From NCBI GenBank assembly GCA_041694815.1, contig JBGFSC010000033.1, positions 90,609-154,608 of the forward strand: a DNA stretch of 64,000 nt. The letters run 5' to 3'. Below the pieces are notes generated by a model. That model was not told where the DNA came from and made no database searches. It worked only from the letters and a program-made list of their open reading frames with translations. Positions 9,845-63,806 of the stretch are shown here, one piece after another. The first letter of the stretch is position 1, and each line of letters opens with the position of its first letter. The translations under genes and the position numbers were made by a program. Source of the stretch: Elusimicrobiota bacterium (lineage in GTDB: Bacteria; Elusimicrobiota; Elusimicrobia; UBA1565; JACRDR01).

Positions 9845-9925
9845 GGGCGATAATAGCAAACCCGCCGCAAGACGGGGGCGCAAAGCCGTGGTCCCGGTTT
9901 CCGGGATGCCAGGCTGCCGAATGCG
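9845..9925 (+). promoter_or_regulatory. c-di-GMP-I (GEMM-I) family riboswitch, A20 variant
   Basis: CGATAATAGCAAA-CCCGCC-GCAA-GACGGG-GGCGCAAA-GCC...TCCCGG-TTT-CCGGGA...GGCTGCCGAA matches the GEMM-I layout: GCAAA, P2 with GNRA loop, GCAAA junction, P3, 3' GCCG. It lies directly 5' of the 9926 ATG. Confidence 0.85.
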
Positions 9926-50100: not shown

Positions 50101-50195
50101 CGGAGGGCGACGGGCTGCGCATCCAGCTGCGCGGCGAGGAGCCGATCGGGTGGGTAGAGTCCTTCGTTACTTCTCTGAATCCCAAGTCAGTTTGA
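47121..50195 (+). CDS. mfd: Transcription-repair coupling factor
   Basis: PGEFALRG.VVDIFP, GDYVVH.DYGI, FPYEETPDQ, GDVGFGKTEVA, DEEHRFG, SATPIPRTL, QLRGRIGR, DLEIRGAG, TRCF domain. Confidence 0.95.
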   Translation: MPEVAIGGVPGSGAWAALALSLLHRRERFPGLPQAAPPLTLVRGSDEEIEDLADALAALLPLFPEAPIAPRIAVFGDDAQVRLGSLEILRRGAEIVLATPDGLRHKAPLPGSFDALRLELRRGRSYPRAELLERLTTLGHQRVDFVESPGEFALRGSVVDIFPLEPVRAVRLNFNEERLESLRLFDPETQAGGEFIEEASLTPAQEAGFEAAVADWLSGRGLWACEAGVELPPVKVGLLRVGSGGPGAFDFGIRPGMRFEGNVELALEQVRRWREQGLRVLFFSLNRGEDERVQELLEGRADCQFLIGPLRSGFVWPTEKLAVLSSSELFERSYRGAPRWGRYGDGSRRRLRWKELKSGDYVVHRDYGISRYLGIEPVESGEAVIDCLRLEFRGSDKLYVPMTDFKLVQKYVGSEGRRPRLSSLDTRSWEAVKARVREGVRELAEELLKVQAARAAWPGHAFGPDSHMEREFAASFPYEETPDQRRAIEEVKADMMRPHPMDRVVIGDVGFGKTEVAMRAALKCASGLKQAAVLVPTTILADQHFRTFSKRFAEYPVRLGMLSRFETPSRQKKTLDLLASGALDIVIGTQRLLSPDVKFKDLGLIVVDEEHRFGVRDKERLKGLKKNVDVLSLSATPIPRTLHQSLSGLRSVSIIRSAPAGRQPIMTRVGPWDEKLVAAAIEAELSRGGQVYYVHNRVRTLDARADALRKLVAGIRVCVAHGQMRSETLEKTMWDFFNRKHDLLAASTIIESGLDIPTVNTLIVEDAQDFGLAQLYQLRGRIGRERQKAFCYLLHPPGSELAHLSEESRKRLEALREFGELGSGLQLAMRDLEIRGAGDLLGAKQHGFVDAVGVEFYSELLGEEIEKLKGGAPKPAVAPVHLDVELPAFIPEEYLPGEMERLEFYKRLIDAGPEQWAALRRELEDLSGPAPRPVVNLFRLFELRAKASAAGLRALSQRDNQVEVYFRPDAQVAAKTLLAWQRDFGGRLEFRRSPEGDGLRIQLRGEEPIGWVESFVTSLNPKSV

Positions 50196-51294
50196 AGCGC
50201 TTCTCCGCGGTATCCAGGGAAGAATAGGTATCCCCAATCGAGGCCTTAAGAGACGACTGTCCATTCGCTTCTTTCAATTCCTGCTCCGTAAATCCGATCC
50301 GTCTAATTGAAATGGTGCCGTTCTTTTCTCCCGTGAGGAGCTTGGTGCCGTTCAAATTAAAAGAGGCGGAAAAAATTTCGGACTCGTGCGAGAATGTCAT
50401 GAGTCTTTCTCCAGTGCGCCGATCCCAAAGGATTGCGGTCTTATCGCGGCTTGCAGTAAGCACATGTAAGCCATCCGGGCTCAAGGATACAGAAGAGATA
50501 TATTCCGTGTGTCCGCGCAGCATCAGTTTCATCTCACCCGTGCGGATGTCTAGAAACGTAGCCGTCGGGTTTTTCCAGCCCGTTACGATGATCAGCTCCG
50601 AATCGTCCGGGCTAAAGCGCACTTTTAGAATGTGGTTCTCGTCATCATTAGCCTGCGGCAGGTTGAAGGCGCTTAGTTTGTAGCCATTCGCCGCGTCAAA
50701 GAGAACAAGCTTGTGTTTGTTGTCGTGCGTGATGATCCTTGAACCATCGTGGCTAAATTCTGGGTCGTAGAGACGGGATGAGCCCGGGGGATCGATATCG
50801 TCTAGCACGAATAAACGATTCCCTAAGACTGAGTTCCATGCTACATGTTTCCCGGTGAATATATCATAGGTCATTAGGATGGATGCATCCGGGCTAAATC
50901 GAGAAAGTGCGTGGCCCTGGCTGTTCTCAAGCTTAAGGTCCTTGCCTGTCTTCCGATCGTGGATAATCCAGTAGGCATCGCCGTTTCCTATGGAAATACT
51001 ACTTGCACTCTTGGAGCCATCGGCGCTGGACTCATTATCCCTAGAGGATTTGTTCCGTATATCTCCTGTAAATGCGTCGCATGTGACAATGGACAGAGGG
51101 AGCGTTACGGTTAAGGTTCGTTCATCATCGCTCCAATGTACGGAATATATCTGGTTCCCGACCAAGTCTTCTGGAAGGATTATCCGGCGTACTCCGCCGA
51201 TCACTGAATCGGTCCATGTCTTGAGCAGGCCGTCGCTCTGCGACCAAACGGGCGATTTCAGCGCCAAAAAGACGAGCATGATGTGCCCAGTCAT
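50167..51294 (-). CDS. Exported WD40 beta-propeller protein (array gene 11, last)
   Basis: FSPD repeats, GHTEYISSVSLSPDG..VLTASRDKTAILWD; ends TAEKRFKLTW; weak signal peptide. Confidence 0.88.
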   Translation of the reverse strand: MTGHIMLVFLALKSPVWSQSDGLLKTWTDSVIGGVRRIILPEDLVGNQIYSVHWSDDERTLTVTLPLSIVTCDAFTGDIRNKSSRDNESSADGSKSASSISIGNGDAYWIIHDRKTGKDLKLENSQGHALSRFSPDASILMTYDIFTGKHVAWNSVLGNRLFVLDDIDPPGSSRLYDPEFSHDGSRIITHDNKHKLVLFDAANGYKLSAFNLPQANDDENHILKVRFSPDDSELIIVTGWKNPTATFLDIRTGEMKLMLRGHTEYISSVSLSPDGLHVLTASRDKTAILWDRRTGERLMTFSHESEIFSASFNLNGTKLLTGEKNGTISIRRIGFTEQELKEANGQSSLKASIGDTYSSLDTAEKRFKLTWDSEK

Positions 51295-52559
51295 GGCAAT
51301 TTGAATCGCTCCTCGGCGCTCTCGCCGTCCTCGGGCCCGGCGGGCTGGGCGGCAACGGCGCCTTCCTTAACGCGGCTCGCCAGTGCCTGGAGTTCCTCCG
51401 GCGTCCAGTCGATCTTTCTGAGCCGGAGCTCGCCCGTTGTGCTCGTAAGAAGCAGGGTATCGTCGGCCCCGAAGGCGATCGGAGAATTTGATTCTTCCGT
51501 CTGTCGGTTGAATAGTATCTCTCCCGTTCGAGTGTCGTAGACGACGAGCCTATTGTCGCAGTGGGCCGCCAACTTCGATCCGTCGCGGTTGAGCGCAGGC
51601 CACGCCGCATGAGCGGACACCCGAAGGGCGCGGATCGGCTCGCCGGTCGCGCCATTGAACAGCGTTATCTCTCCTTTAGAGGAGGCGACGAGCGCCGTCT
51701 CGCCGCCATCGCTGAGCAATAGACTATAGACGCGTTGGCGGCGAAACAGGAACTTGCGTTTGTCCGATTTTAAATCGTGGAGGTACACGAAACCGCCGTT
51801 ATGAGCCGTCAAGGCTCGCGATCCGTCGCGGCTAAGCGCCATATGCGTCGTCTTCCGGCGATCGACTTCCAGCAGAAGCGCGGGGCCTTTTTCGCGAGCA
51901 AGCGCGTTCCAGGAATAGGCGGTGTCCATCGCGGAGTGCAGGATGATTCGGCTGTCATCGGGTGTCAACCAGGCCGAGCCGCCATAGTGGAGATCGTCGA
52001 CGCCATGGATCGTCCTCAGCCTTTTTCCGCTGCGCACATCCCAGACGACGATCCGTTGATCTCGGCAGGCGCCGAGCAATTTCGTTCCATCGGAGGAAAA
52101 AGAAAGCGAGTCGGGGTTCCAGCAGCCCTTTAGCCGGCGTAGCCTCCTGCCGTTTTTCGCGTCCCAGAGGTAGATGCGTTCCTCGTAATAGGCCTCCTCG
52201 GTGTCGACGGCTGCGATCAAGGAGCCGTCCGGACTCAAGGTTCCGCGATCGATATAGGTTCCGGTCAGCTTGAGCGTGTCGGATTTCCGTAGCGGCTCCA
52301 GCAGCGAGCGGTCCTCCAGCGCGGAGCGCGGGCCCGCTCCATCAAAAAGGCGGTCAAGCATGGCGAGCTTGAAGCGATTCTCGGCCTTCCCATCTGATAT
52401 ATTTGGGCCGTGCGGTGCGGGAAGAACTCGACTGGACCAGGGAGGGGCAACATCGTCAAAGGCCGAGGTTTTAGGTTGGCTGGCATGAAGCATGGTAGCG
52501 CCGGCGCTCCAGGTGGCCGATAGAAGCGCTGAATATATCGTTGGTCTCGCAAAGTTCAT
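51291..52559 (-). CDS. Exported WD40 protein (array gene 10, mosaic)
   Basis: Start MNFARPTIYS at the ATGA overlap; WD repeats; ends SAEERFKLP. Confidence 0.85.
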   Translation of the reverse strand: MNFARPTIYSALLSATWSAGATMLHASQPKTSAFDDVAPPWSSRVLPAPHGPNISDGKAENRFKLAMLDRLFDGAGPRSALEDRSLLEPLRKSDTLKLTGTYIDRGTLSPDGSLIAAVDTEEAYYEERIYLWDAKNGRRLRRLKGCWNPDSLSFSSDGTKLLGACRDQRIVVWDVRSGKRLRTIHGVDDLHYGGSAWLTPDDSRIILHSAMDTAYSWNALAREKGPALLLEVDRRKTTHMALSRDGSRALTAHNGGFVYLHDLKSDKRKFLFRRQRVYSLLLSDGGETALVASSKGEITLFNGATGEPIRALRVSAHAAWPALNRDGSKLAAHCDNRLVVYDTRTGEILFNRQTEESNSPIAFGADDTLLLTSTTGELRLRKIDWTPEELQALASRVKEGAVAAQPAGPEDGESAEERFKLP

Positions 52560-53746
52560 CGGTCGTTTCGTTCCTGTGACCATGGCAGCTTGAAGCGTTT
52601 TTCGGCCGTTTCCTGAAAGGAGTCGTTCGCGACGGAGACTTTCTGGAACAGCTTTCTCTTTATCTCTTCCATCTCTTGCGCGGAGGCGGCGATCCGCCAT
52701 ATGGAGACGCTGCCGTAATTTCCGCCGGTGATGATCTTGGTTTCGTCGGAGTTGAAGGCGGCGGACCAAAGCGGCGTTTCGTGCGCGAATTCCCTGAGCA
52801 TTTCCCCGTTTCTCGAGTCCCATAGGATCGCCCGCTTATCCTGGCTCGCGGTCAGGATTTTCGACCGGTCCGGGCTCCAGGATACGGAACGGATCGACGC
52901 GGTATGGCCGCGCAGGATCGTTTTCGTTTCGCCTGTCCGGATATCCAGTATCATCGCCGTCCAGTCCGGATTGCTGACGGCGACGATCTCGGAGGAATCG
53001 GGGCTGAACCATGCTTCCTCTATGTATCCGCCGGTCCAATCGGTCTCCTTCGCATTGAGTATTTTTAATTGATTCCCCGTTGCCGCGTCCCAGAGCACGA
53101 CCCTTTTCCCTTGGCTCGGCGTCACGATCATGGAGCCGTCGGGACTAGATTTGGCGCCGCGGAGCGAATACGCGTACGGATTCCGCAAAAAGCCGGGGCG
53201 TGTTCCGCTGTCCTTGAGCTCGTAAAGTCTCTTCCCCGTGTTCGAGTCCCAGACGGACACCGAGGACAGGAATTTCACGGAGCCCGGAGGGTCGCGATCG
53301 ATGGTCGTCAGTTTCGATCCGTCCGGGCTGAAGCCGAGGAAGTCGTATATGTTTTTATCGGCATAAAGCCTCATCGCCATTCCTTTATTAAGGTCATGGA
53401 CAATCCAATAATAGGTGAACTCAGGGTCCTCGATGCGTTCGATCTTCTTCGACCCGTCCGGGCTGAGATTCCATGCCTCCCTTTGGACGGTCTGAAGGGC
53501 TTCGCCGGTGGCGGTGTTGAACGTAATGGTGTGAAAAGGAAAGACTACCGTCGCCGTTTGTCCGTCATCGTTCAGGTGGACGGACGTGGCGATGGCGTTT
53601 CCCATGTCGCGAGGCGCCCGTAGTTTGCGTTTTGATCCTATCGGAAGATCATGGAGCCCATCCAGAACGCCTTGCTGTGCCACGACGGCGGGCGTTAGAG
53701 CCGCAGCCCGCCACAGGAGCAAAAAGGCCAACGCTGGAATCTTCAT
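52556..53746 (-). CDS. Exported WD40 protein (array gene 9)
   Basis: Signal peptide; GHTASIRSVSWSPD..ILTASQDK.AILWD; ends TAEKRFKLPW. Confidence 0.9.
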   Translation of the reverse strand: MKIPALAFLLLWRAAALTPAVVAQQGVLDGLHDLPIGSKRKLRAPRDMGNAIATSVHLNDDGQTATVVFPFHTITFNTATGEALQTVQREAWNLSPDGSKKIERIEDPEFTYYWIVHDLNKGMAMRLYADKNIYDFLGFSPDGSKLTTIDRDPPGSVKFLSSVSVWDSNTGKRLYELKDSGTRPGFLRNPYAYSLRGAKSSPDGSMIVTPSQGKRVVLWDAATGNQLKILNAKETDWTGGYIEEAWFSPDSSEIVAVSNPDWTAMILDIRTGETKTILRGHTASIRSVSWSPDRSKILTASQDKRAILWDSRNGEMLREFAHETPLWSAAFNSDETKIITGGNYGSVSIWRIAASAQEMEEIKRKLFQKVSVANDSFQETAEKRFKLPWSQERNDR

Positions 53747-54888
53747 TCTCCATCCCTATCCCAAGGGAGTTTGAAACGTTCCTCTGCGGTCTCTCCGCCG
53801 ATGACAGATGAAGCCGGAGTCGATAGGGCGCGGCGGAGTTCCCCTACATCGTGTTCATTCGCCCGGATTTTCCAAATTCTTATGCCGTCATTTACATAAC
53901 ATGCACTGGCGATTTCCGTGCCGTCAGGGCTAAAGGCGAAGGACTGAATATAGCAAGTGTGTCCGGTAAGCAATTTGACCGGCTTTCGGGTGGCAATATC
54001 GTAAAGTTCTATATTAGCGGTCTTAGCCAGCGCTACAAGTCTGCCATCCGGACTGAAGCTGACTGAATTGACGTGATCGTCTCCTTCAAAGCTGTGCAGC
54101 AAAGCGCCGCTCGCTACGTCCCATAGAGAAATCGTGTCGCAGTTTCCAGCGGACCCGTCGCAGCGTTGGTGGCTCAGTAGCTTGGTGTGATCGGGACTCA
54201 ATGTGACCGATATAAGCCAGTCCCCCCAATACCACCATTTCTTCTTTGAAACGGGCAACGGCACGGATCGTAGACGAGCGCCCGTTTTGATATCCCAGAG
54301 CTCGGCGGAATTGTCTCCGGGAGTCCAAACGGTGGAGCCTGATGCGTCGAAGCCACCGAAGGGCCGACGCGTCGGTAAGGTGATCAGCTTTTGGCCCGTC
54401 CGTGCGTCCCAAAGAGTCATCCGTCCGCCGTCGGTGGTGGCTACGGCCGCTGAGTCAGGTGTAAATAGAACGCCTAAGACCTGCTCCTGCGTGTTCAAGC
54501 GCGCCAACACCTCTGCTGTGCTTAGATCGCGGATCGTCGCCCCTCGCTCATCCGGGATTAAGGCTTTTGTGCCATCCGGGCTTGGGAGGGAGGTGTAGCC
54601 CCAAAGCGGAGTGTTGATCGTCGAATGCACGATCCGGCTGATCGTCTCGCCGCTGCGCGCGTCGAGGACATGGGTGTCACGAATGCCGCCCAGGATAATC
54701 CGATTTCCATCGGGACTGAAACGAATTCCCCTGACGTTTTCCGGCGCGGGAAGAACTCGACTGGACCAGAGCGGGGCATAATCGTCAAGGGTCGAGGTTT
54801 TGGGCGAGCTGGCATGAAGCAGGGTAACGCCGGCGCTCCATGCGGTCAATAGAAGCGCCGAATATATCGTTGGTCTCGCGAAGCTCAT
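53743..54888 (-). CDS. Exported WD40 protein (array gene 8)
   Basis: Start MSFARPTIYS; WD repeats; ends TAEERFKLPW. Confidence 0.88.
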   Translation of the reverse strand: MSFARPTIYSALLLTAWSAGVTLLHASSPKTSTLDDYAPLWSSRVLPAPENVRGIRFSPDGNRIILGGIRDTHVLDARSGETISRIVHSTINTPLWGYTSLPSPDGTKALIPDERGATIRDLSTAEVLARLNTQEQVLGVLFTPDSAAVATTDGGRMTLWDARTGQKLITLPTRRPFGGFDASGSTVWTPGDNSAELWDIKTGARLRSVPLPVSKKKWWYWGDWLISVTLSPDHTKLLSHQRCDGSAGNCDTISLWDVASGALLHSFEGDDHVNSVSFSPDGRLVALAKTANIELYDIATRKPVKLLTGHTCYIQSFAFSPDGTEIASACYVNDGIRIWKIRANEHDVGELRRALSTPASSVIGGETAEERFKLPWDRDGE

Positions 54889-56045
54889 TGGTCGTCTCGT
54901 TCCTGTAACCATGGCAGCTTGAAGCGTTTTTCGGCCGTTTCCTGAAAGAAGTCCACGTCGGCGCCTGTGCTTACGAGTGCTGCGCGGCGCCGTTTATCTT
55001 TCATTTCCTGCGGAGTGAACCCGATCCGCCAAGTGAAAATATGGCCGGAATCATCGCCCACAACGATCTTGGTGCCGTTGGAATTAAAGGAGGCGGAATA
55101 AAGGGGATGAGGGTGGGGAAATGTTTTGAGCTGGCTCCCGGTCCGCCGGTCCCATAGAATCGCTTTTCCGTCCAAGCCTACGGTGAGAAGCATGGATCCA
55201 TCCGGGCTCATGGATACCGACTGCACGGTCGACGAGTGGCCGCGAAGCGTCATGGTTTGGAGCCCCGTGTGAGTGTCAAAGAATTCGACGGTGCCGCTGA
55301 GAAACTCCGCGCCGATCAAGGAGCCGTCCGCATTGAACCAGACTTTGTCGAAACTGCCATGCTTGTCCACGTCGGTTTCGTTTTCATGAATGGTCCGCAG
55401 CCTGCGACCCGTTAAAGCATCCCAAAGAACGAGTTTCTTGCCCATGCCCTGCGTCACCAGCATCGAACCGTCGGTACTGAATGCAGGGCGAGTAAGTACC
55501 TGATGAAAGCCTTTAGGAGACACGTCGTCGAGAACAAACAGGATTTTTCCGGTGTTCGTATCCCAGGCTGTCACTCGGTAGTATCTCTGATCGTAGGTAA
55601 GCAGCTTCGAGCCGTCGGGACTGAATCCCGCGAAAAAGTGCTTCCAGCTTCCTGCGAGCCTAAGCAGCGCTTTGGTTTTTTCGTCGCGGATGAACCATTC
55701 CGAAGCCCCGAATTCTCTGCTTTCGGTCGCGCTCTTCGAGCCGTCGGCGCTTAGCCTTCGGTGATTCGGGGTTTCCCAGCGTATCTCGCCGCTCCGGAAG
55801 TCCCAGCAGATGACGGAGTCTGCAAGCGTAGCCGTTAGGGTCCGTTCATCATCGTTCAGCTGGACGGAATAAACACCTCGCAGGTAAGACCGGCCCAAGG
55901 ATCCCGCAGGAACGGTGAACTCTCTTCCCAAACCTATCTCGGAGTCGGCGATCTCATCGAGCAAGCCAGCATGAAGCGTGGTGGCTATAGCGCTCCAGGC
56001 GGTCAATAGAAGCGCCGAATATATCATTGGTCTCGCGAAGCTCAT
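54885..56045 (-). CDS. Exported WD40 protein (array gene 7)
   Basis: Start MSFARPMIYS; GHSSTVQSVSMSPDG; ends TAEKRFKLPW. Confidence 0.88.
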   Translation of the reverse strand: MSFARPMIYSALLLTAWSAIATTLHAGLLDEIADSEIGLGREFTVPAGSLGRSYLRGVYSVQLNDDERTLTATLADSVICWDFRSGEIRWETPNHRRLSADGSKSATESREFGASEWFIRDEKTKALLRLAGSWKHFFAGFSPDGSKLLTYDQRYYRVTAWDTNTGKILFVLDDVSPKGFHQVLTRPAFSTDGSMLVTQGMGKKLVLWDALTGRRLRTIHENETDVDKHGSFDKVWFNADGSLIGAEFLSGTVEFFDTHTGLQTMTLRGHSSTVQSVSMSPDGSMLLTVGLDGKAILWDRRTGSQLKTFPHPHPLYSASFNSNGTKIVVGDDSGHIFTWRIGFTPQEMKDKRRRAALVSTGADVDFFQETAEKRFKLPWLQERDDQ

Positions 56046-57139
56046 CGGTCGTCTCGTTGCCGTGACCATGGCAGCTTGAAGCGTTTCTCCGCCGTCTCGG
56101 ATGATTGGGATCCGGAGTTGCTGCGGGTCTTCCGCCGCAATCTGCTTGCCATCTCACGAAGTTCGGTGTCCGTATATCCGATTTTCCAGATGAAGACGGA
56201 ACCGTCCTCGCAGCCGAGCGCTACGTGTCGGCCATCGGGGTGGAACGAAACGGAGCCGATTTTGGAGGAATGTTTGAATGTCCGGAGCTTCTCTCCATTG
56301 CGGGCGTTCCAAAGTACGGCCATTCCATCGGTGCTTCCGGTGACGATCATGGATTCGTCGCGATTAAATTCCGCCGCGGCGATTCTATGTTCGCCGCTCG
56401 AAAGTATGGCGAGCAATTCGAAGGACTTGGCGTCATAAATCGCCGCGGCGTATTCATTCCGTGGGTAATGCACCCCGAAAACCGTAAACTTAGTTCCGCC
56501 CGGACTGAAGGAAGCCCCCTCAGGGCCTAAATCCTCGATCCGTTTCAAGAGCCTTCCATCCTTGGTGCTTCGAACGCCGACATACACAGAGTAGTTCGTA
56601 TAATCGATGGTCAGAAAGGAGTCCCCGTTCGGACTGAGAGCGGCGGGATCTATCGATTCTCTTGGATCTAAATTTACCTTCCAAATCTGGTTTTGCGTCC
56701 GAGGATCCCATCCAAGTAGAAAATTAGAGGAACTAACGAAGTGGCTTGCGAGCATAAAGGAACCGTCTTCGGAAAGAAGCCCTCTCTTCCAAAATGGGAA
56801 GGGAGTCGGCACTTGGGCGACCTTTCCCGTTTGGGGGTTCCAGGATTCCAGGCCGGCGGAGCCTCGAAAAATTATTTGTTCTTCTTTCACCACGTGGACC
56901 GGCCCACGTACTGAGGGTTCAAGGCGTTTTACCTCACTTTGGGTCTGCCAGTCATAGAGAATGAGACGATTTCTCCAGGCCATTAGCAGATGCGAGCCGC
57001 CTTGGGAAAAGATCGTTTCGGTCCTATCCGGAAATTTGTGCAGCAGTCGCGGCGGCGGGAGCTCGCCGAGGAGGCTTTCGGACGCGAAAAGGCTTATGGG
57101 CGGGAAACTCAGCATTAAGGCGAGGACGGAGAAAATCAT
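56042..57139 (-). CDS. Exported WD40 protein (array gene 6)
   Basis: Signal peptide; IVTGSTDG.AVLWN; ends TAEKRFKLPW. Confidence 0.88.
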   Translation of the reverse strand: MIFSVLALMLSFPPISLFASESLLGELPPPRLLHKFPDRTETIFSQGGSHLLMAWRNRLILYDWQTQSEVKRLEPSVRGPVHVVKEEQIIFRGSAGLESWNPQTGKVAQVPTPFPFWKRGLLSEDGSFMLASHFVSSSNFLLGWDPRTQNQIWKVNLDPRESIDPAALSPNGDSFLTIDYTNYSVYVGVRSTKDGRLLKRIEDLGPEGASFSPGGTKFTVFGVHYPRNEYAAAIYDAKSFELLAILSSGEHRIAAAEFNRDESMIVTGSTDGMAVLWNARNGEKLRTFKHSSKIGSVSFHPDGRHVALGCEDGSVFIWKIGYTDTELREMASRLRRKTRSNSGSQSSETAEKRFKLPWSRQRDDR

Positions 57140-59325
57140 GGTTTCTCAAGCGCGTCGCCGTCAAAAGGTAATTTGAAACGCTGCTCGGCCGTCTCGCCAT
57201 CCTCGGGCCCCGCGGGCTCGGCCGGTGGCGCTCCCTCCTTCACCAACGGGGCGAGCTCTTCGAGCTCCTGCGGGGTCCATGCGATTTTCAAAAGTTGTAG
57301 CGATCTATTGCCGTAGGCCAAGAGCATGGAATCGTCCTTGCTGAAGGCGTCCGGGGACATCCCATCGTCCGTAAGCAGGGTATGCAGCTTCTTCCCGCTG
57401 CGGGTGTCGAACACCGCGATCTTGTTATCGGCAATGTCGACGGCGAACTTCGAGCCGTCTCGGTTGAGCACCGGCGAGCCGAGATGATCGCGCACCCAGA
57501 TCGTGCGCCGCTTCCTTGCCGTCGCGACGTCGAAGATCAGTGTCTTCCCGTTATGATGGGTGACGGAAGCCGTCGAGCCGTCTTCGCTGATAAGGACGGT
57601 AAAGATTGGATTGCTGATCTCCAACAGCCTTCTGCTTGCGCCCGACCTTAGGTCCTGCAGATAAACGAATCCCCCCTGGGTGGCTACGATCGCCTTGTCT
57701 CCGTAGCGGCTGACGGCTAAATGGGAAAAAGGAGTCTTCGGTTGATCCATCACCAAATTGCCTTCATGGTTTCGTCCGGAAACCGGATACATATAGACGC
57801 GATGCAGCTGGGAAGCGAGGACGATGTTTTTGCCGTCCGGTGTAAACCACGCGTGGCCTGGGTAGTAGAGATCGTAGACATCCTTGATCATGCGGATCCT
57901 GCGCCCATTGCGTACATCCCAGACAAGCAGCGTTTGGTCCCGGCAGGCGGCGAGCAGCTTGCTGCCGTCCGGAGAAAACGAGGTCGAGGAGGGGCGCCCG
58001 CATCCTTTTAAAGTGCGAAGGCTTTTTTTCGTCTTGATGTCCCATAGCTGGATATTGCCCTTCTCGTCTCCCGTAGCGATCAAGGAGGTATCGGGGCTCA
58101 GGCTCCAGCAGCATGTGAGCCTTTCGATCTTGAGTTCGGCGCGAACGCGATTGTGATCCAAAAGTGCGCGATCCGTTCCCAAGGGAGGCAGTGGGTTGGC
58201 ACCGTCGAAGAGCCGCTCGGGCGGCAGCTTGAAGCGCTCCTCGGCCTTTTGGCCCTCGGCGTCGGAACTCACGGGTTCCACCTTGCGCTCCAGCCGCCGC
58301 TTGAACGCGGCGAGCTCCGCGGGAGAATATTCAAGGCGCCAGAGGCGTATCGTACGGTCCGAGCCGGCGCTAACTATTTTCCTGCCGTCGGCGCTGAAAG
58401 AAACGGATACCACGTAGCCCTTATGCCCTTTGAATATCCGTAGCTTCTCTCCGCTGGCTGCGTCCCAGAGCACGACGTCTCCATCGCCGCCGGCCGTCGC
58501 GATCTTGAGATTATCGGGGCTCAATACGGCCGAATGGACCCGGTTGTAGCCGTTGTCGAAGCTCATCGTGATGTTACGGATCGGCTGGGCCGTATGAGCG
58601 TCCCAGAGAGTCAAAAAATCTTTGCAGTGGGAAGCGAGGGGCGCCATGCAGCCGCTATGCGTGAGGATCGTGGAGCCGTCCCGGCTGTAGGAGGCCGATC
58701 TCATGTAATGCATCCATTTCTCATGATAGGGCGGGTCAAATCGCAGTTCATGCAAGAATTTCCCCGTCCTCGCCTCCCAGATCAAGGCCTTGTTGTACAA
58801 ATCCCGGACCACCACGCGCGTTCCGTCCGGGGAAAAGGAGGCGTTGTCGGCCCTCCAGGTGGCCATAGGGAGGGTCGCCTCTTTCTTTCCCGTTTTCGCG
58901 TCCCAGAGGCTGAGCGGAAAATCCCTCCCCGAGGCCATCACCCTCGAGCCGTCGCGGTTGAAGGAGAGCGAGTCCAGGGGCCGGCCGGAGGCCCATAGCG
59001 CGGCCACAAAATCCCCGGTTTCGACGTCGCGGATAACGGCGCCGCGATTGTCCGAGATCGCTATCTTCTTGCCGTCGGGACTAAAGCAGGAGGGATATTT
59101 CAGGCCGCCGGGGTGTTCGATTCGGTACAGGGCTTTCCCGGAATCGGCGTCCCAGACCGCGCTATGGCCGCGGCCTACCATGAGGATTCTCGACGAGTCT
59201 GGAGAGAATTCCACCGAAACGACGTCATGGGCCTCCTCGGTGATCACCTTCGACTCCTGGGCGTCGTGTAGAATGGAGTCCCCGGCGAAGGCCGCCGAGA
59301 CGGCCAAGATCAACGCCAGCATCAT
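57136..59325 (-). CDS. Exported double-propeller WD40 protein (array gene 5)
   Basis: Signal peptide ending AFA; two WD40 blocks separated by internal KAEERFKLP; ends TAEQRFKLPF. Confidence 0.9.
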   Translation of the reverse strand: MMLALILAVSAAFAGDSILHDAQESKVITEEAHDVVSVEFSPDSSRILMVGRGHSAVWDADSGKALYRIEHPGGLKYPSCFSPDGKKIAISDNRGAVIRDVETGDFVAALWASGRPLDSLSFNRDGSRVMASGRDFPLSLWDAKTGKKEATLPMATWRADNASFSPDGTRVVVRDLYNKALIWEARTGKFLHELRFDPPYHEKWMHYMRSASYSRDGSTILTHSGCMAPLASHCKDFLTLWDAHTAQPIRNITMSFDNGYNRVHSAVLSPDNLKIATAGGDGDVVLWDAASGEKLRIFKGHKGYVVSVSFSADGRKIVSAGSDRTIRLWRLEYSPAELAAFKRRLERKVEPVSSDAEGQKAEERFKLPPERLFDGANPLPPLGTDRALLDHNRVRAELKIERLTCCWSLSPDTSLIATGDEKGNIQLWDIKTKKSLRTLKGCGRPSSTSFSPDGSKLLAACRDQTLLVWDVRNGRRIRMIKDVYDLYYPGHAWFTPDGKNIVLASQLHRVYMYPVSGRNHEGNLVMDQPKTPFSHLAVSRYGDKAIVATQGGFVYLQDLRSGASRRLLEISNPIFTVLISEDGSTASVTHHNGKTLIFDVATARKRRTIWVRDHLGSPVLNRDGSKFAVDIADNKIAVFDTRSGKKLHTLLTDDGMSPDAFSKDDSMLLAYGNRSLQLLKIAWTPQELEELAPLVKEGAPPAEPAGPEDGETAEQRFKLPFDGDALEKP

Positions 59326-60410
59326 TCCCATCTGAGCTTAAAGCGCTCTTGCGCGTCCTCGTCGCCGGCGTAGGCTCCGGGAAGGGCGGCTGGCTTTTTC
59401 AGGAAGTTCTCGATCTGTTCGGCGGCTTCCTTCGCGGGTCGCAGCTCCCAGAAGATTAAGGCGCCGTCGTCACCGGCGGTGGCCGCCCATTGCCCATCGG
59501 GGCTCAGGGAGGCCGAACGGACAGCGTCGCGATGCCCGCGAAGAACCTTGAGCTTTCGTCCAGTGCGCGCGCTCCAGAGCACCGCCGTCTTATCTCCGCT
59601 TGCGGTGATAATGGTCCCGCCGTCGCGGCTAAACGCCGCCGAATAGATCATTCTAGAATGCTCGAGCCGGAATAGCGGCGAGAGGCTGCGCGCATCCCAG
59701 ATCTGCGCCGAATGATCGCAGTCCGTGCGTCGGAGGCTGCAGCCGCTCACCGTCATCCATTTCGAGCCGTCCGGGCTTTCAGAAACGTGGTAAATGGCCT
59801 TTTGGGTTCCACGGATGATTTTTAGGCGCTTTCCGGTGCTAGCGCTCCAGATGGAGAAGGTATTGTCGCCGCCTGCCGACAGGATGCGGGTTCCGTCCTT
59901 GCTGAAGATGGGGTTGCAGACCTTCCAGTACTCCTTTGTCTCGAGCGACGCGAGCCGTTCACCGCTGGTCAGCTCGAAGATCATTGGCCATTGATAGTGA
60001 AGCGACGAGACTATCTTAGATCCGTCAGGACTGAATACGGCGCTCAGCATTTGGAGTTTCCATATCCGCTGGAGCCGCTCTCCGGAGCCGGCGTCGTAGG
60101 TCGCGACCCCCGTGCCATCCACGATCAAGATCCGATCTCCCGCGGGGCTAAAGGAGGCATTAGCGGGGGCTTCCGCCCGGACGGAGAATCGAACCCGTCC
60201 GCTCGGCCAATCGCGCACGAGCACGAGGCTGTTCCAATAATGTTCCAGCAGAGCTTTGCCGTCCGGGCTGAAAGAGACGGCAAAGGGTCGGTGGGGAAGA
60301 CTGGTAATGATGGGGTATGCCGGCGCGAGCGTGCCGCGGTTGCCGGCGTAAACGAACGAGTTCAACGAGAGGGCTAGAGCCGCCAGCCGGAGGGCGCGGT
60401 CGCCAATCAT
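59322..60410 (-). CDS. Exported WD40 protein (array gene 4)
   Basis: Signal peptide; GHRDAVRSASLSPDG; ends DAQERFKLRW. Confidence 0.9.
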   Translation of the reverse strand: MIGDRALRLAALALSLNSFVYAGNRGTLAPAYPIITSLPHRPFAVSFSPDGKALLEHYWNSLVLVRDWPSGRVRFSVRAEAPANASFSPAGDRILIVDGTGVATYDAGSGERLQRIWKLQMLSAVFSPDGSKIVSSLHYQWPMIFELTSGERLASLETKEYWKVCNPIFSKDGTRILSAGGDNTFSIWSASTGKRLKIIRGTQKAIYHVSESPDGSKWMTVSGCSLRRTDCDHSAQIWDARSLSPLFRLEHSRMIYSAAFSRDGGTIITASGDKTAVLWSARTGRKLKVLRGHRDAVRSASLSPDGQWAATAGDDGALIFWELRPAKEAAEQIENFLKKPAALPGAYAGDEDAQERFKLRWE

Positions 60411-61495
60411 GGCAGGCGGAACCTCTCTTCCGCCTTTTCGATCATCCTGGCCTCAGGCCGGCGCAGCTCCGGGGCCAGCGCGCGGGCCATCTCGCCAAGT
60501 TCCGCGGGGGTGAATTCCAGCCGGCGGATCCAGGCGCGGCCGGATTCCGCGACCGCGATGCCCGCGGCGTCGGGGCTAAATGACGCGGAGCTAAAGCGCG
60601 AGAGGGTGCTCAGGCGGGCCAGCTCCCGTCGGGTCTTGCTGTCGCGGACGACCAGCAGACGATCGCTCAGGATAAAGAACTTGGACCCGTCCGCGCTGAA
60701 GGAGGCCTCCCAGGCGCCGGGCTCTCCGGCCTCCACCTTGAAGGTTTCGATTCGTTGCCGCCTCCGCGCGTCCCATAGCTCCGCGTCCCTGCCCTTAGTG
60801 ACGGCCAATATCAGGGAACCATCGGGGCTAAATAGCGCCTTCCAATATTCCGTGCCCTCGGACAATATAGGCTCGATCCTTTCGCCCGTCCGTCCGTCCC
60901 AAAGCCCTGCCTTGCCCTGGGGGGTGAGCAAAAGCCAGGATCCGTCCGCGTTAAAAGAGGCCGAGCGCGAGTCCTCACCCCCCTCGAGCACCGCGATGCT
61001 TTTGGAGGTCGCGGCGTCCCAGAGCACGCCGGCGCTCGCGGGGCCGCTCGTGGCGAATCTCGAGCCGTCGGGGCTAAACGCGCCGGCCTCGACGAATCCG
61101 GTGAACCCGCTGGCCTTGAGCACGTCTAGCAGCTCGGGCGGGCCGCCTTTTTCTAAATTCCAGGTGCGGGCCTTATTTCGACCGCCGAGAAAAACCCTGG
61201 TTCCGGATTTCGAGAATCCGATCGAGTCGATCGCGCGGCCGTTAGGATAGCTGCCGAGATCGATGGCGCCGGCCGCCTTGTCCTCCAGGAGGTCCCAGAT
61301 CAGGGCCTCATGGTTGTAGACGGCTGCCAGATGTCTACCGTTCGGGCTGTAGGCGACGAGGTGGATGCGGCCCTCGGGTAAACTTAATTGCTTTTTGTCC
61401 GCGAAGCGTTCGAATAAGGCGCGCGGCGAAAGCTCCGATCCCGCCGCCTGCGTCGCGGCGAAGAGGACCAGCGCGGCGGCCTTCACGAGAATCAT
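60407..61495 (-). CDS. Exported WD40 protein (array gene 3)
   Basis: Start MILVKAAALVLFAA at the ATGA overlap; FSPDG repeats; ends KAEERFRLP. Confidence 0.88.
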   Translation of the reverse strand: MILVKAAALVLFAATQAAGSELSPRALFERFADKKQLSLPEGRIHLVAYSPNGRHLAAVYNHEALIWDLLEDKAAGAIDLGSYPNGRAIDSIGFSKSGTRVFLGGRNKARTWNLEKGGPPELLDVLKASGFTGFVEAGAFSPDGSRFATSGPASAGVLWDAATSKSIAVLEGGEDSRSASFNADGSWLLLTPQGKAGLWDGRTGERIEPILSEGTEYWKALFSPDGSLILAVTKGRDAELWDARRRQRIETFKVEAGEPGAWEASFSADGSKFFILSDRLLVVRDSKTRRELARLSTLSRFSSASFSPDAAGIAVAESGRAWIRRLEFTPAELGEMARALAPELRRPEARMIEKAEERFRLP

Positions 61496-62622
61496 CTTCG
61501 GAACAGCTCCCAAGGCAGCCGGAAACGCTTTTCGGCCGCTTCCCCTACCAGGGAAGCCTGATCGGAGCCGAGTTTCGAGGATAGGTTCTTGGCGAGTTCT
61601 TCTAGCTCGTTCTTCGTATATTCGAGCCGCCAGATGGCGATGCCGTACTCGTCGGCGATCAGGGCTTTGTCGCCGTCGGAACTCAATGCCGAGATCCAAC
61701 TGGTGTTGAGTCTGGGGCCCGGGGGACACCACTTGGCGTGGGGCAGCGCCTTTCGTTTTTGTCCCGTTTTGGCGTCCCACAGCGCAGTTTCCTCCGAATC
61801 CGCGGATACGATCTTTAAACCGTCGTGGCTCACAAGAAAACCGCTTCCATGGGGACGTGGGAATCCGTATCGGGCAAGCTCCTGCCAGGTTTGCGGGTCG
61901 CGAACGAAGATGGCGCCATCTTGATAGGCCACCAAAAGCTCGTTCTTAGTCGAATTCCACGCGATCGAATGGATGGAGGAGGGGTACGTGTCATCAATCC
62001 GATGCAGTTTTTTGCCGGTTTGCATTTCCCAAATCGTAATGTGCTTTTTGAATTTCCACGAAAGATCAATGTCCAAGCTGTAGGCCAAAATAGTTTTTTC
62101 TTGCGGACCCAAAACCGCGGGGCCGTATGCGTACGATTCTTCTAAGTTCAGCAACGCTTTCCCGGATTGCATGTCCCAAGCGGTGACCTGCTTATTATCC
62201 GATGTCAGCAGCATCGATTCGTCAAGGCTGAGGGAAAAAGCCTTGACCACGTTGGCCCTCATCTTAAACGTCAAGCCCACCTTGCCGTTTGGCAGGTCTA
62301 AGACAATCACGCGCCCATAGCCATTGTCACTAATCAACGCGAGGGTTCCGTTCCGATTAAAAATAATTGAGTCAGGCCAGACGCCTTTTTCGATCGCAAA
62401 TATCTTTAGCCGCTTCCCGGTCGCGCCGTCCCAGAGGCTGGCCGTCCCGTCGTCTCTGGCCGCCAGAACCTTGGAGCCGTCCGGCGTGAACGCGGCGGCC
62501 GTGATAGGGCTGCGCGGCATTTCAAGAAAAAGCACCGATTCGTTGAAAACGCCTCGCTCGGCGGCCAGCAGGGTATGAGCGGTGAAGAAGACCGACATAA
62601 GGACCGTCCATTGTCGCTTCAT
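61492..62622 (-). CDS. Exported WD40 protein (array gene 2)
   Basis: Signal peptide; WD repeats; ends AAEKRFRLPW. Confidence 0.88.
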   Translation of the reverse strand: MKRQWTVLMSVFFTAHTLLAAERGVFNESVLFLEMPRSPITAAAFTPDGSKVLAARDDGTASLWDGATGKRLKIFAIEKGVWPDSIIFNRNGTLALISDNGYGRVIVLDLPNGKVGLTFKMRANVVKAFSLSLDESMLLTSDNKQVTAWDMQSGKALLNLEESYAYGPAVLGPQEKTILAYSLDIDLSWKFKKHITIWEMQTGKKLHRIDDTYPSSIHSIAWNSTKNELLVAYQDGAIFVRDPQTWQELARYGFPRPHGSGFLVSHDGLKIVSADSEETALWDAKTGQKRKALPHAKWCPPGPRLNTSWISALSSDGDKALIADEYGIAIWRLEYTKNELEELAKNLSSKLGSDQASLVGEAAEKRFRLPWELFRR

Positions 62623-63806
62623 TCGAATTTAATCTGAAAGAGGTCCCAGTTGAGCCGGAAGCGCTGTTCGGCCGACTCCTCCGGCAGGCGCGGCTCCGGT
62701 TTAGCGGCGCCGTTTAGAATCATGGGGCCGGCGATTCGCTGGAATATCTTTTCGGGCCCTATGTCGACCTTCCAGGTTCGGACGGTTTCTCCGCTGACGG
62801 TGACGACCCGCCGCTCATCCGGTGAGAAAGAAGCCTCATCGACATTTTCCGCATGCGTGATAGTTCGAACGGGCTTTTGGGCCTTTCGATCCCAGATAAT
62901 GACCTGCCTGCCGCCGGCGACCAGTATCCGGCTTTTGTCCCTGCTAAACGCTATCGAGCGGAACTTATACGGGGAAAAGCCTATAGCGGGGGCTTTGTAG
63001 AGAAATTTAACATCGTCGGTAAATGCGTTGCGGGACCGTCCGGTGTCGCAATCCCAAAGCGTGATCGGAGCGTTGAAAAATTTCAGCCCAAGCAACTCCT
63101 TGCCGTCCGGGCTCAGCGTGAAGGGGTAGGCCCACTGGGTGATGAGAATTTTTTCCTCGCCCGTATCAGGATCCCAGAGGATCGCCCGCGGCTCGCTGCG
63201 ATGCAGCGGGTTTTTGTTGTGCTTCATTAGGAAGAACAAAATTCTTGATCCATCGGGATGGAAGCGGGCTTGAAGGATAATCACGCCTGGTTTCTTGAGC
63301 GTCTTAACACGCCGCGCGGACGCCGTATCCCATAGGACGACTTCGCTATACCCATTCCAATGATAGGGAGCCGTACTGGGCTCTAAGGACGCTCCAGCAG
63401 TCACGACGCGCGTACCATCATGGTTGAATGCGGCATCCAAGACATGGCCGCCGTGGGCTTTCACCGAACGGGAGGTTCCGGCCCCAATATCCAAAAGGGC
63501 GATTTCTCCTTCGTCGTTTCCGATCGCCAGTCTGGATCCGTCCGGGCTCCAGTCCCAGGCGGTCGCATAAGATCGAAGCGACAGGGTCCGGTCCGGCCGG
63601 CCATGCAAATCGCGCAGGAGTATCGTGTGATCGTTCTTGAGTATCGCTAAAACCTTTCCATCCGGGCTAAAACGGGCTTGGCGAGCGCCGGCATCAACGA
63701 TGATGCGGCCTTGGTCGCGCTCGAGGATGCGATCCATGATCCCGATCGCCGGTTCTTGCGCCGCAACCTGCGCTATGATAAGAGGAAAGAGGCCAAGGAA
63801 TTTCAT
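62619..63806 (-). CDS. Exported WD40 protein (array gene 1)
   Basis: Signal peptide MKFLGLFPLIIAQVAA; WD repeats; ends SAEQRFRLNW. Confidence 0.9.
   Translation of the reverse strand: MKFLGLFPLIIAQVAAQEPAIGIMDRILERDQGRIIVDAGARQARFSPDGKVLAILKNDHTILLRDLHGRPDRTLSLRSYATAWDWSPDGSRLAIGNDEGEIALLDIGAGTSRSVKAHGGHVLDAAFNHDGTRVVTAGASLEPSTAPYHWNGYSEVVLWDTASARRVKTLKKPGVIILQARFHPDGSRILFFLMKHNKNPLHRSEPRAILWDPDTGEEKILITQWAYPFTLSPDGKELLGLKFFNAPITLWDCDTGRSRNAFTDDVKFLYKAPAIGFSPYKFRSIAFSRDKSRILVAGGRQVIIWDRKAQKPVRTITHAENVDEASFSPDERRVVTVSGETVRTWKVDIGPEKIFQRIAGPMILNGAAKPEPRLPEESAEQRFRLNWDLFQIKFE

Follow-up and report, generated by a model that had tools for sequence, protein, structure and literature searches.

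Why do eleven adjacent beta-propeller genes of an uncultured bacterium all end in the same short peptide? The question is raised by a 64,000-nucleotide stretch of DNA (hereafter the window) from an Elusimicrobiota bacterium (assembly GCA_041694815.1; genome G000 below), which forms the end of contig C38 in a genome of 2.77 Mb. Positions 50167-63806 hold eleven coupled open reading frames (ORFs) on the minus strand, encoding WD40-type propellers with N-terminal hydrophobic signals; the WD40 family PF00400 matches above its cut-off in ten of the eleven, and gene 10 scores 25.5 against a cut-off of 27. A preliminary description, made from the sequence alone, had noted a C-terminal motif shared by all eleven proteins, and the same strings were recovered from the minus-strand ORFs: each protein (11/11) ends in a helix, a variable flexible linker and the motif A-[EQ]-x-R-F-[KR]-L, with the stop 1-10 residues later. 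The analysis below follows this tail through the genome and its relatives, and leads us to read it tentatively as a recognition tag whose candidate reader is a midasin-like pair of an AAA5 ATPase and a vWA protein. Judged by its protein sequences, the lineage of G000 is a lone genus: the best named homolog of its MnmG shows 75% identity, the named homologs are from Elusimicrobiota, and each of ten proteins looked up, some of them ribosomal, is a singleton at 90% identity.

The tail extends far beyond the window. A six-frame translation of the genome (stop-to-stop ORFs of at least 30 residues) contains A[EDQ]xRF[KR][LIF] 63 times, compared with 4.9 expected from composition, and 59 of the 63 occurrences lie within 15 residues of a stop, compared with 0.9 expected; because these same proteins supplied the pattern, the corresponding P values are indicative. 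Among 2431 called genes, no C-terminal words are more enriched than the four-residue words of the motif, even though the crude gene caller missed 20 of 64 tail carriers. Altogether, the tail closes 67 ORFs on 26 contigs, 64 of them detected by a weight matrix and three more by a profile. The carriers are dispersed and low in GC content (0.57 vs 0.63). By a crude hydrophobicity score, which together with inspection by eye was our criterion for signal peptides, 50 of 64 tagged proteins have a signal-peptide-like start, compared with 511 of 2386 other called proteins.

Propellers account for only part of this set. A WD40 profile built from these proteins matches 37 of 64 carriers, and 38 of 44 WD40-like ORFs have the tail, a fraction to be read with the bias of the profile towards carriers in mind. 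The remaining 27 comprise two propeller fragments and 25 non-propellers, namely 16 small hydrophobic-hairpin proteins that have no credible Pfam match, four AAA core or lid fragments, one FGE-sulfatase-like protein and four orphans. An ESM Atlas search with a hairpin protein gave nothing, and a search for longer homologs of the C19 passenger found none. Within the FGE-type family, one of nine paralogs carries the tail. The earlier idea of one motif per propeller thus does not hold for the genome as a whole. A docking or sorting signal is still the best reading of the peptide; of the partners then proposed, the neighbouring propeller is unlikely as a general target because many carriers are not propellers, and a common partner is available only as a candidate (see below). 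Related hairpin proteins that lack a C-terminal tail were also seen (C54:66961-68429, C38:21741), and a frameshift breaks a propeller gene at C38:22295-23409, the downstream piece of which has the tail.

The simplest account of the motif would be that it is the ring-closing (velcro) strand of the propeller or part of a known domain. Its position after the last blade in all eleven window genes fits this idea. However, an AlphaFold model of gene 4 (30-row alignment; predicted local distance difference test (pLDDT) 88, predicted template modelling score 0.84) comprises 28 strands, and its seventh blade is closed by an N-terminal strand (model residues 10-13). The propeller is therefore complete without the tail, which answers the ring-closure part of the structural check suggested in the preliminary description. 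The tail itself begins with a helix (residues 303-314) and continues as a low-confidence segment (pLDDT ~57) with a short helix over the motif, outside the ring. Moreover, 25 carriers are not propellers, and a comparison of 74 tails with Pfam and NCBIfam found no family that matches more than two of them and, as far as shown, none near its cut-off. Ring closure is refuted as a general role, and we regard this explanation as virtually discounted. Overall, the tail spans ~40 residues and consists of a helix, a flexible linker rich in A, S, E, P, D and G, and the motif A-x-x-R-F-[KR]-[LIF]-x-W.

Among 64 copies of the motif, the alanine is invariant (64) and the arginine and phenylalanine are nearly so (62 each); 29 copies reach position +2, and 20 of them have a tryptophan there. 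Aspartate or glutamate is found between A and R in 66 of 67 G000 motifs. The last motif residue is the end of the protein in 20 of 64 copies, 15 more add one residue, and the overall extension ranges from 0 to 14. At each motif position, codon choice across the 64 copies equals the codon use of the same genes, which places selection on the peptide, as the preliminary description had proposed. A DNA-level repeat or an integron-like recombination site was considered and rejected on the same grounds, together with a median nucleotide identity between tail pairs of only 0.40. The tail also moves as a unit between unrelated genes, to judge from a propeller gene on C25 and an unrelated orphan on C40, which share 112 nucleotides at 91% identity that are confined to the tail. 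Since A, R and F are nearly fixed across different folds, we infer that the reader of the tail is a protein. A second, looser tag of the L-F-D-G or G-L-L type, chosen by eye, follows the signal peptide in 20 of 64 tagged proteins and in 12 of 511 other signal-peptide proteins.

Initial searches suggested that the tail was private to G000. The tail profile built from this genome (A1) yielded 33 matches among 1.84 billion representative sequences, 32 of them from G000 and one an unrelated TPR protein, and in 30 relatives it gave matches at chance level only. In leave-one-out tests, however, only 22 of 64 tails reached the 36-bit threshold, so these searches were blind to diverged copies; the module-end copies of one relative, G359, score at most 9.6 bits. 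The private-tail reading was consequently rejected. The public-database check advised in the preliminary description returned almost exclusively G000 itself, and the copies in relatives came to light by other routes (see below). DNA pattern scans gave 43 GTDB and two viral matches, none of which is a secreted protein with the motif at its C-terminus. Roughly half of them come from a single conserved coiled-coil protein of Sphingomonadales-type genomes (L042-L083), which we take to be PspA-like; it carries nine identical residues ~75 residues before its end, which we treat as chance. The Elusimicrobiota match, L064, sits in a 35-codon frame. A literature search found neither the motif strings nor a description of the tail. 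As far as searched, the tail is undescribed and would belong to a known kind, the C-terminal recognition tag. In its action it would resemble either a bipartite sorting signal or a module shared among clients, as in midasin.

Relatives do carry the tail, for the most part inside giant proteins. A propeller search of the family fetched 30 loci, 24 of them from relatives, and identified one protein in G005, a family mate of G000, with a signal peptide, a propeller, the same helix and a diverged motif. Its gene is preceded by genes for a double-AAA5 protein and a vWA protein, each with a signal peptide. Orthologs of this AAA5 ATPase are rare, occurring in 5 of 393 genomes of the class; in three of them (G082, G196 and G359), the ATPase is a module of a giant ORF. 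The G359 ORF (4285 residues, start open), scanned as a prospective test of the original pattern, contains five copies compared with 0.027 expected and a maximum of two in 5000 shuffles. Four of the five come after propellers or propeller-like segments and one after the vWA module, past a long linker. An internal signal-peptide-like segment comes next in four cases, and the remaining copy is at the C-terminus. A profile that included these copies (18 candidates scored per genome) retrieved one new genome among the 393, G533, which was thus not found via the ATPase. Its two tagged ORFs lie directly downstream of a vWA ortholog, whose module is cut by the contig end, and contain five copies (four by the strict pattern, compared with 0.01 in shuffles), two of them before internal signal peptides. 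G359 and G533 belong to an Elusimicrobiota family other than that of G000, and nine of their tails compared with 64 G000 tails at the profile level gave a probability of 94.5% (E 8.4e-8). When the whole genomes of G005, G082, G359 and G533 were searched, nothing above chance turned up beyond the AAA5/vWA loci; in these relatives, every detected copy falls in an ORF or operon of an AAA5 and/or vWA module. A metagenome scan with the ATPase returned one locus, which had no flanks.

The polyproteins of L190 (G359:C167), L226 (G533:C143) and L189 (G196:C87) share a repeated unit of a signal-peptide-like helix ending in A-x-A, a short loop, a second hydrophobic helix and a globular domain. Judged from its sequence, this unit suggests processing of a bacterial polyprotein by signal peptidase. 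Giant membrane polyproteins of Omnitrophota and Elusimicrobiota have been described, with a signal peptide, many membrane segments, cytoplasm-type enzyme domains and possible cleavage between modules; the passages considered, from main texts only, describe neither a repeated module-end peptide nor separate tagged genes, and the word 'motif' occurs once in one text and not at all in the other (10.1101/2023.11.21.568195; 10.64898/2026.06.07.730766). Two further giant ORFs bear module-end repeats of their own, which we count only as analogous. L228 (G082:C12; 2454 residues) has four A-x3-F-x3-W repeats after globular modules, with 0.63 expected in shuffles for a pattern chosen afterwards; one of its modules is homologous to the tagged G000 protein C19:70950 (E 5e-10) and has the repeat at the same position. 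L255/L256 (G535:C93) is a 9958-residue ORF of AAA5, vWA and propeller modules with at least eight copies of a tail made of a helix, an L-N-K-V-P-like core, a basic linker and a V-K-F-like end. A looser pattern derived from G082, A-x3-F-x3-[WF], was tried and dropped, as it has no copy in G359, G196, G534 or G535.

The location of these copies bears on two alternative explanations. One is that the motif is a processing site: a protease, perhaps the HExGH domain found in the vWA protein, would cut there and free the passenger from the next membrane segment. Six of the ten module-end copies in G359 and G533 indeed lie just before an internal signal-peptide-like segment, and the N-terminal HExGH motif, with a downstream acidic residue as in zinc peptidases, is kept in five of five full vWA orthologs. 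Yet in the 35 G000 copies that end at the motif or one residue after it, there is nothing to release, and the HExGH domain matches no Pfam peptidase and no other Pfam family; in the ESM Atlas, it falls into unnamed, mostly viral clusters, with CobT on 20% of one. We consider cleavage at the motif distinctly unlikely; transpeptidation on the motif may be envisaged as well. The other explanation takes the basic-aromatic motif as a membrane-interface anchor or a relic: it would derive from the juxtamembrane portion of an internal signal sequence and have persisted as a short amphipathic membrane binder once the polyprotein had been split. Its place before hydrophobic segments, the spacing of A, F and W at i, i+4 and i+8, and the G082 and G535 module-end segments, which are of the same general kind but differ in sequence, are all compatible with it. 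Nevertheless, a near-invariant A, R and F with free codon choice in 64 copies, many of which have two hydrophobic residues only, exceeds the specificity that lipid binding requires, and the recent grafting between the C25 and C40 genes speaks against a relic. Its probability appears as low as that of cleavage.

If the tag is read by a protein, the genes that accompany it in relatives offer a candidate. G000 has orthologs of the G005 AAA5/vWA pair on C20 (58% and 43% identity), both with signal peptides and both without the tail, and five tagged propeller genes flank them. The best solved relatives of the ATPase are midasins (6or5, E 8e-82), followed by CbbQ and NorQ, and its next homologs among long proteins are midasin-type; it has AAA5 domains with Walker motifs and matches PF07728, but not PF20030 at E 0.001. 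The adjacent vWA protein (796 residues; model pLDDT 66) gives the midasin MIDAS (metal-ion-dependent adhesion site) domain, Rea1-MIDAS 6qt8, as its top fold match, then NorD, and its MIDAS residues (DxSxS, T, D) are conserved. On these sequence and fold comparisons, the C20 pair is a MoxR/midasin-type AAA and vWA pair. A complex prediction for the vWA protein (residues 70-796, 6-row alignment, Mg) and the tail (74-row alignment) scored 0.00 twice in a setting in which the controls were not folded either, and is not used as evidence.

Midasin acts on the clients Rsa4 and Ytm1, which are WD40 proteins. Mdn1 pulls two clients via its MIDAS through their shared ubiquitin-like (UBL) domains, according to the sections considered of one account (PMC8837202), and in MoxR-type systems, as partly covered in another (PMC7159879), the MIDAS of the vWA partner binds extended peptides. 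The C20 pair resembles midasin (Rea1/Mdn1) in its dynein-related AAA5 domains, flexible linker and MIDAS domain. It differs from Mdn1 in that the ATPase has two AAA domains instead of six, the AAA and vWA parts are separate proteins or polyprotein modules, and the module shared by the putative clients is a ~40-residue C-terminal tail instead of a folded UBL domain. The MoxR-vWA pairs NorQ-NorD, CbbQ-CbbO and RavA-ViaA are similar in that an AAA5 and vWA gene pair stands beside beta-propeller genes, as on C20 (PMC7159879, in the portion considered). The MoxR-vWA-beta-propeller ternary system, subsystem 4 of the same survey as far as excerpted, requires a vWA protein with a C-terminal propeller and a bpMoxR ATPase of PF20030, whereas the G000 vWA protein ends with its vWA domain and the C20 ATPase matches PF07728 (PMC7159879).

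We thus favour, at somewhat less than an even chance, the reading that the tail is a portable recognition tag read by the midasin-like AAA5/vWA pair, a candidate partner suggested by genomic linkage and by two analogies, the pulling of Rsa4/Ytm1 by midasin and the MoxR-vWA pairs. According to this model, the ~40-residue tail after unrelated passengers would be a handle for a protein machine; the ATPase and its MIDAS-vWA partner would grip it and then pull on, unfold or hand on the passenger, and the flexible linker would give the AAA ring its unstructured lead-in. AAA+ proteins usually engage a tag of this make, a short motif that ends a flexible linker of 10-30 residues. The tail tolerates a free C-terminus, an extension of 1-14 residues or an internal position. 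The system would act outside the cytoplasm of the producer, either in a periplasm fed by TLC-type carriers or in a host cell, and the genes of the window array would encode clients that have multiplied recently, as single genes where relatives use one polyprotein. A broader scenario appears improbable to us, although worth stating: a signal-peptide-bearing AAA/vWA machine, powered by ATP of a host or partner cell outside the producer cytoplasm, would read the tag on dozens of interchangeable cargo domains; the ancestral polyproteins would have been cut by signal peptidase, and G000 would have split them, with the cargo now at 67.

Several observations weigh against the pair as the reader. Nearly all G000 motifs have the Asp or Glu between A and R that a MIDAS ligand would require, but an acid at this place is seen in just 4 of the 10 G359/G533 motifs. 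A MIDAS contact of the classical type can therefore not be the rule; if the pair is the reader, the constant contact may be made by A, R and F with the AAA pore or the N-domain. The vWA profile matches 21 of 393 genomes, and ORFs from 15 of the 21 were examined (G089, G017, G043, G098, G099 and G102 were left out, and the G401 region gave no ORF long enough). Among these, no module-end copy was found in the AAA5/vWA polyproteins of G534, G005:C384 (a second locus of that genome) and G196, which is truncated on both sides and has a single, incomplete propeller, nor in six representatives of a clade further removed (G001, G006, G008, G018, G038 and G103). The G535 tail reaches a probability of 3% against the tail profile, and the G082 repeats score within random controls. 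The linkage itself is suggestive but consists of few independent cases, because G082 and G359 were found through the ATPase, and G005 and G000, like G533 and G359, are family mates. A module may share a polyprotein with AAA5 and vWA modules without being their client. Under the usual rules of topology, the domains of the polyproteins would face the cytoplasm, whereas the single-gene versions of G000 and G005 would be exported; either the lineage would have moved the system outside with TLC-supplied ATP, or both forms would act in a host cell. Finally, at least seven other ATP-dependent enzymes of G000 with signal peptides (four ClpB-type ATPases, FtsH, Lon and adenylate kinase) could read the tag.

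These enzymes belong to a wider export context. At least eight ATP-dependent enzymes of G000 have a signal-peptide-like start, none of them tagged, and no later membrane segment was seen where they were scanned. The genome further encodes two TLC-family carriers (C9:22483 and C25:48698), and its gene lists show loci of type II secretion and Tad as well as two type IV pilus loci. Searches with PF03135, PF00771 and PF05943 (VirB4, FHIPEP and the T6SS sheath) found nothing in this genome, which is rated 97.8% complete, and SprA_N gave one match below cut-off, in an 1829-residue protein. In Plasmodium, the PTEX apparatus combines the HSP101 unfoldase with the EXP2 pore. The tail might analogously serve a second export step, in which Sec carries the proteins into the periplasm, where the tail is read by an apparatus for outer-membrane passage or host delivery (type II, Tad, a SprA-like barrel, or a ClpB-type unfoldase with a pore), with propellers and hairpin proteins as diversifying effectors. 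A signal peptide and a C-terminal tag on unrelated passengers, dispersed genes of low GC content and the machinery just listed agree with this proposal, as do giant proteins of the sister phylum that adjoin type II and Tad loci in the portion considered of one study (10.1101/2023.11.21.568195). On the other hand, the signal-peptide ATPases and the vWA protein would need the same destination and lack the tag, the type II and pilus loci are unlinked to tagged genes except for one gene beside Tad, and the polyprotein tag is followed by membrane hairpins, which should keep the modules embedded in a membrane. We judge this second-step export unlikely, though ahead of the other alternatives; it overlaps with the AAA5/vWA reading if the pair is itself part of the export step.

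A docking role that involves no ATPase must also be weighed. Here, the tails would attach to one another or to a shared scaffold, and so restore without covalent bonds the assembly that relatives obtain as a polyprotein. One tail per module in polyproteins and two-propeller ORFs is what such docking predicts, and the alternating F-x-L-x-W, with its frequent tryptophan at +2, suits strand addition. In polyproteins, however, a covalent chain already joins the modules, no scaffold that repeats a binding domain was identified, and the G000 AAA5 and vWA proteins, members of the same polyproteins, do not have the tail. Such docking seems rather less probable than second-step export.

Other short terminal signals resemble the tail in part. 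In the type IX secretion system (T9SS), an Ig-like C-terminal domain of ~70-80 residues is shared by unrelated cargo with signal peptides, and type IV secretion systems also use C-terminal recognition signals. The combination of a signal peptide and a C-terminal module on unrelated cargo is common to the T9SS and the tail; the latter differs in its length of ~40 residues, its helix and linker, its internal occurrence and the lack of a Pfam or NCBIfam match to the T9SS domain. As for the machinery, G000 gave the one SprA_N match below cut-off and no VirB4. LPXTG, PEP-CTERM and GlyGly-CTERM are likewise short C-terminal signatures on many secreted proteins of a genome, but the 67 carriers have no transmembrane helix or basic cluster after the motif, which is followed by 0-14 residues, and no NCBIfam match. 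With ssrA, Lon degrons, HbYX, PDZ ligands and BAM beta-signals, the tail shares a short motif that ends a flexible linker and has aromatic and basic residues. In contrast to PDZ ligands, BAM beta-signals, HbYX and PTS1, it varies in its distance from the C-terminus (0-14) and occurs internally, which indicates that a free terminal carboxylate is not needed, and its carriers are not beta-barrels. Likeness to oomycete RxLR-EER, PTS1 and Lon degrons was considered and rejected, as the EE is not kept in G359 and G533 and the distance from the C-terminus varies.

Whatever its reader, the tag provides, for the first time in the searches made, a sequence feature from which the modular division of the giant Elusimicrobiota membrane polyproteins can be approached: it stands at the ends of modules and ahead of internal signal peptides, and it is found again on single genes where a lineage split the polyprotein. 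It also yields, for an uncultured bacterium, a list of 67 cargo proteins. The candidate reader, a bacterial midasin-like AAA/vWA pair, is small and expressible, which makes binding, unfolding and localisation testable in E. coli or in vitro. Should it work outside the cytoplasm, this would bear on why the lineage equips many ATP-dependent enzymes with export signals.

Table 1. Tagged genes of the window array (positions in the window) and signal-peptide-bearing ATP-dependent enzymes and vWA protein of G000 (contig:position)
Feature	Position	Strand	Details
Gene 1	62619..63806	-	Signal peptide, WD40 propeller and tail; 395 aa; motif codons 62652-62672
Gene 2	61492..62622	-	Signal peptide, propeller and tail; 376 aa; motif 61516-61536
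Gene 3	60407..61495	-	Signal peptide, propeller and tail; 362 aa from ATG at 61495; motif 60413-60433
Gene 4	59322..60410	-	Signal peptide, 7-bladed propeller and tail; 362 aa; motif 59334-59354; AlphaFold-modelled
Gene 5	57136..59331	-	Two propellers in a single ORF, tail after each; 731 aa; motifs 58225-58245 (internal), 57169-57189
Gene 6	56042..57139	-	Signal peptide, propeller and tail; 365 aa; motif 56072-56092
Gene 7	54885..56069	-	Signal peptide, propeller and tail; probable start at second ATG, 56045; motif 54915-54935
Gene 8	53743..54888	-	Signal peptide, propeller and tail; 381 aa; motif 53767-53787
Gene 9	52556..53746	-	Signal peptide, propeller and tail; 396 aa; motif 52586-52606
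Gene 10	51291..52559	-	Chimera, gene-8-like start and gene-5-like second half; 422 aa; motifs 52365-52385 (remnant), 51297-51317
Gene 11	50167..51294	-	Signal peptide, propeller and tail; 375 aa; motif 50188-50208
ClpB-type ATPases	C2:22715, C15:3073, C25:55338, C9:74955		Signal-peptide-like start
FtsH	C9:20394		Signal-peptide-like start
Lon	C9:33955		Signal-peptide-like start
Adenylate kinase	C9:74299		Signal-peptide-like start
ATP enzyme	C15:202		Signal-peptide-like start
AAA5 ATPase	C20:63843		Signal peptide
vWA protein	L013:6460-8847 (C20)		Signal peptide

Within the array, the internal copies reported earlier for genes 5 and 10 are both present. The one in gene 10, near its N-terminus, is by sequence comparison a remnant of rearrangement, as the first 147 nucleotides of this gene are 86% identical to gene 8 and residues 58-422 share 47% identity with gene 5 from the internal motif of the latter onward. 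ATGA overlaps couple all eleven genes if genes 5 and 7 start at their second ATG. GC content drops here from ~0.65 to 0.56. The array may be longer than seen, because the contig ends 194 bases upstream of gene 1.

Elsewhere in the window, a c-di-GMP-I riboswitch at 9846-9922 is the sole Rfam match and is far from the array; it lies just after the gene of a 13,779-residue signal-peptide protein (C38:58886-100225) that ends in a FlgD-Ig domain and has no tail motif. The AAA lid or core fragments that combine a signal peptide with the tail (C8:6634, C38:83, C38:10015 and C38:10779) often adjoin FGE-sulfatase-like genes, the FGE-type genes being located at C8:7173, C38:547, C40:518, C19:3247 and C25:58124-60269; as a guess, these fragments could be dominant-negative AAA subunits.

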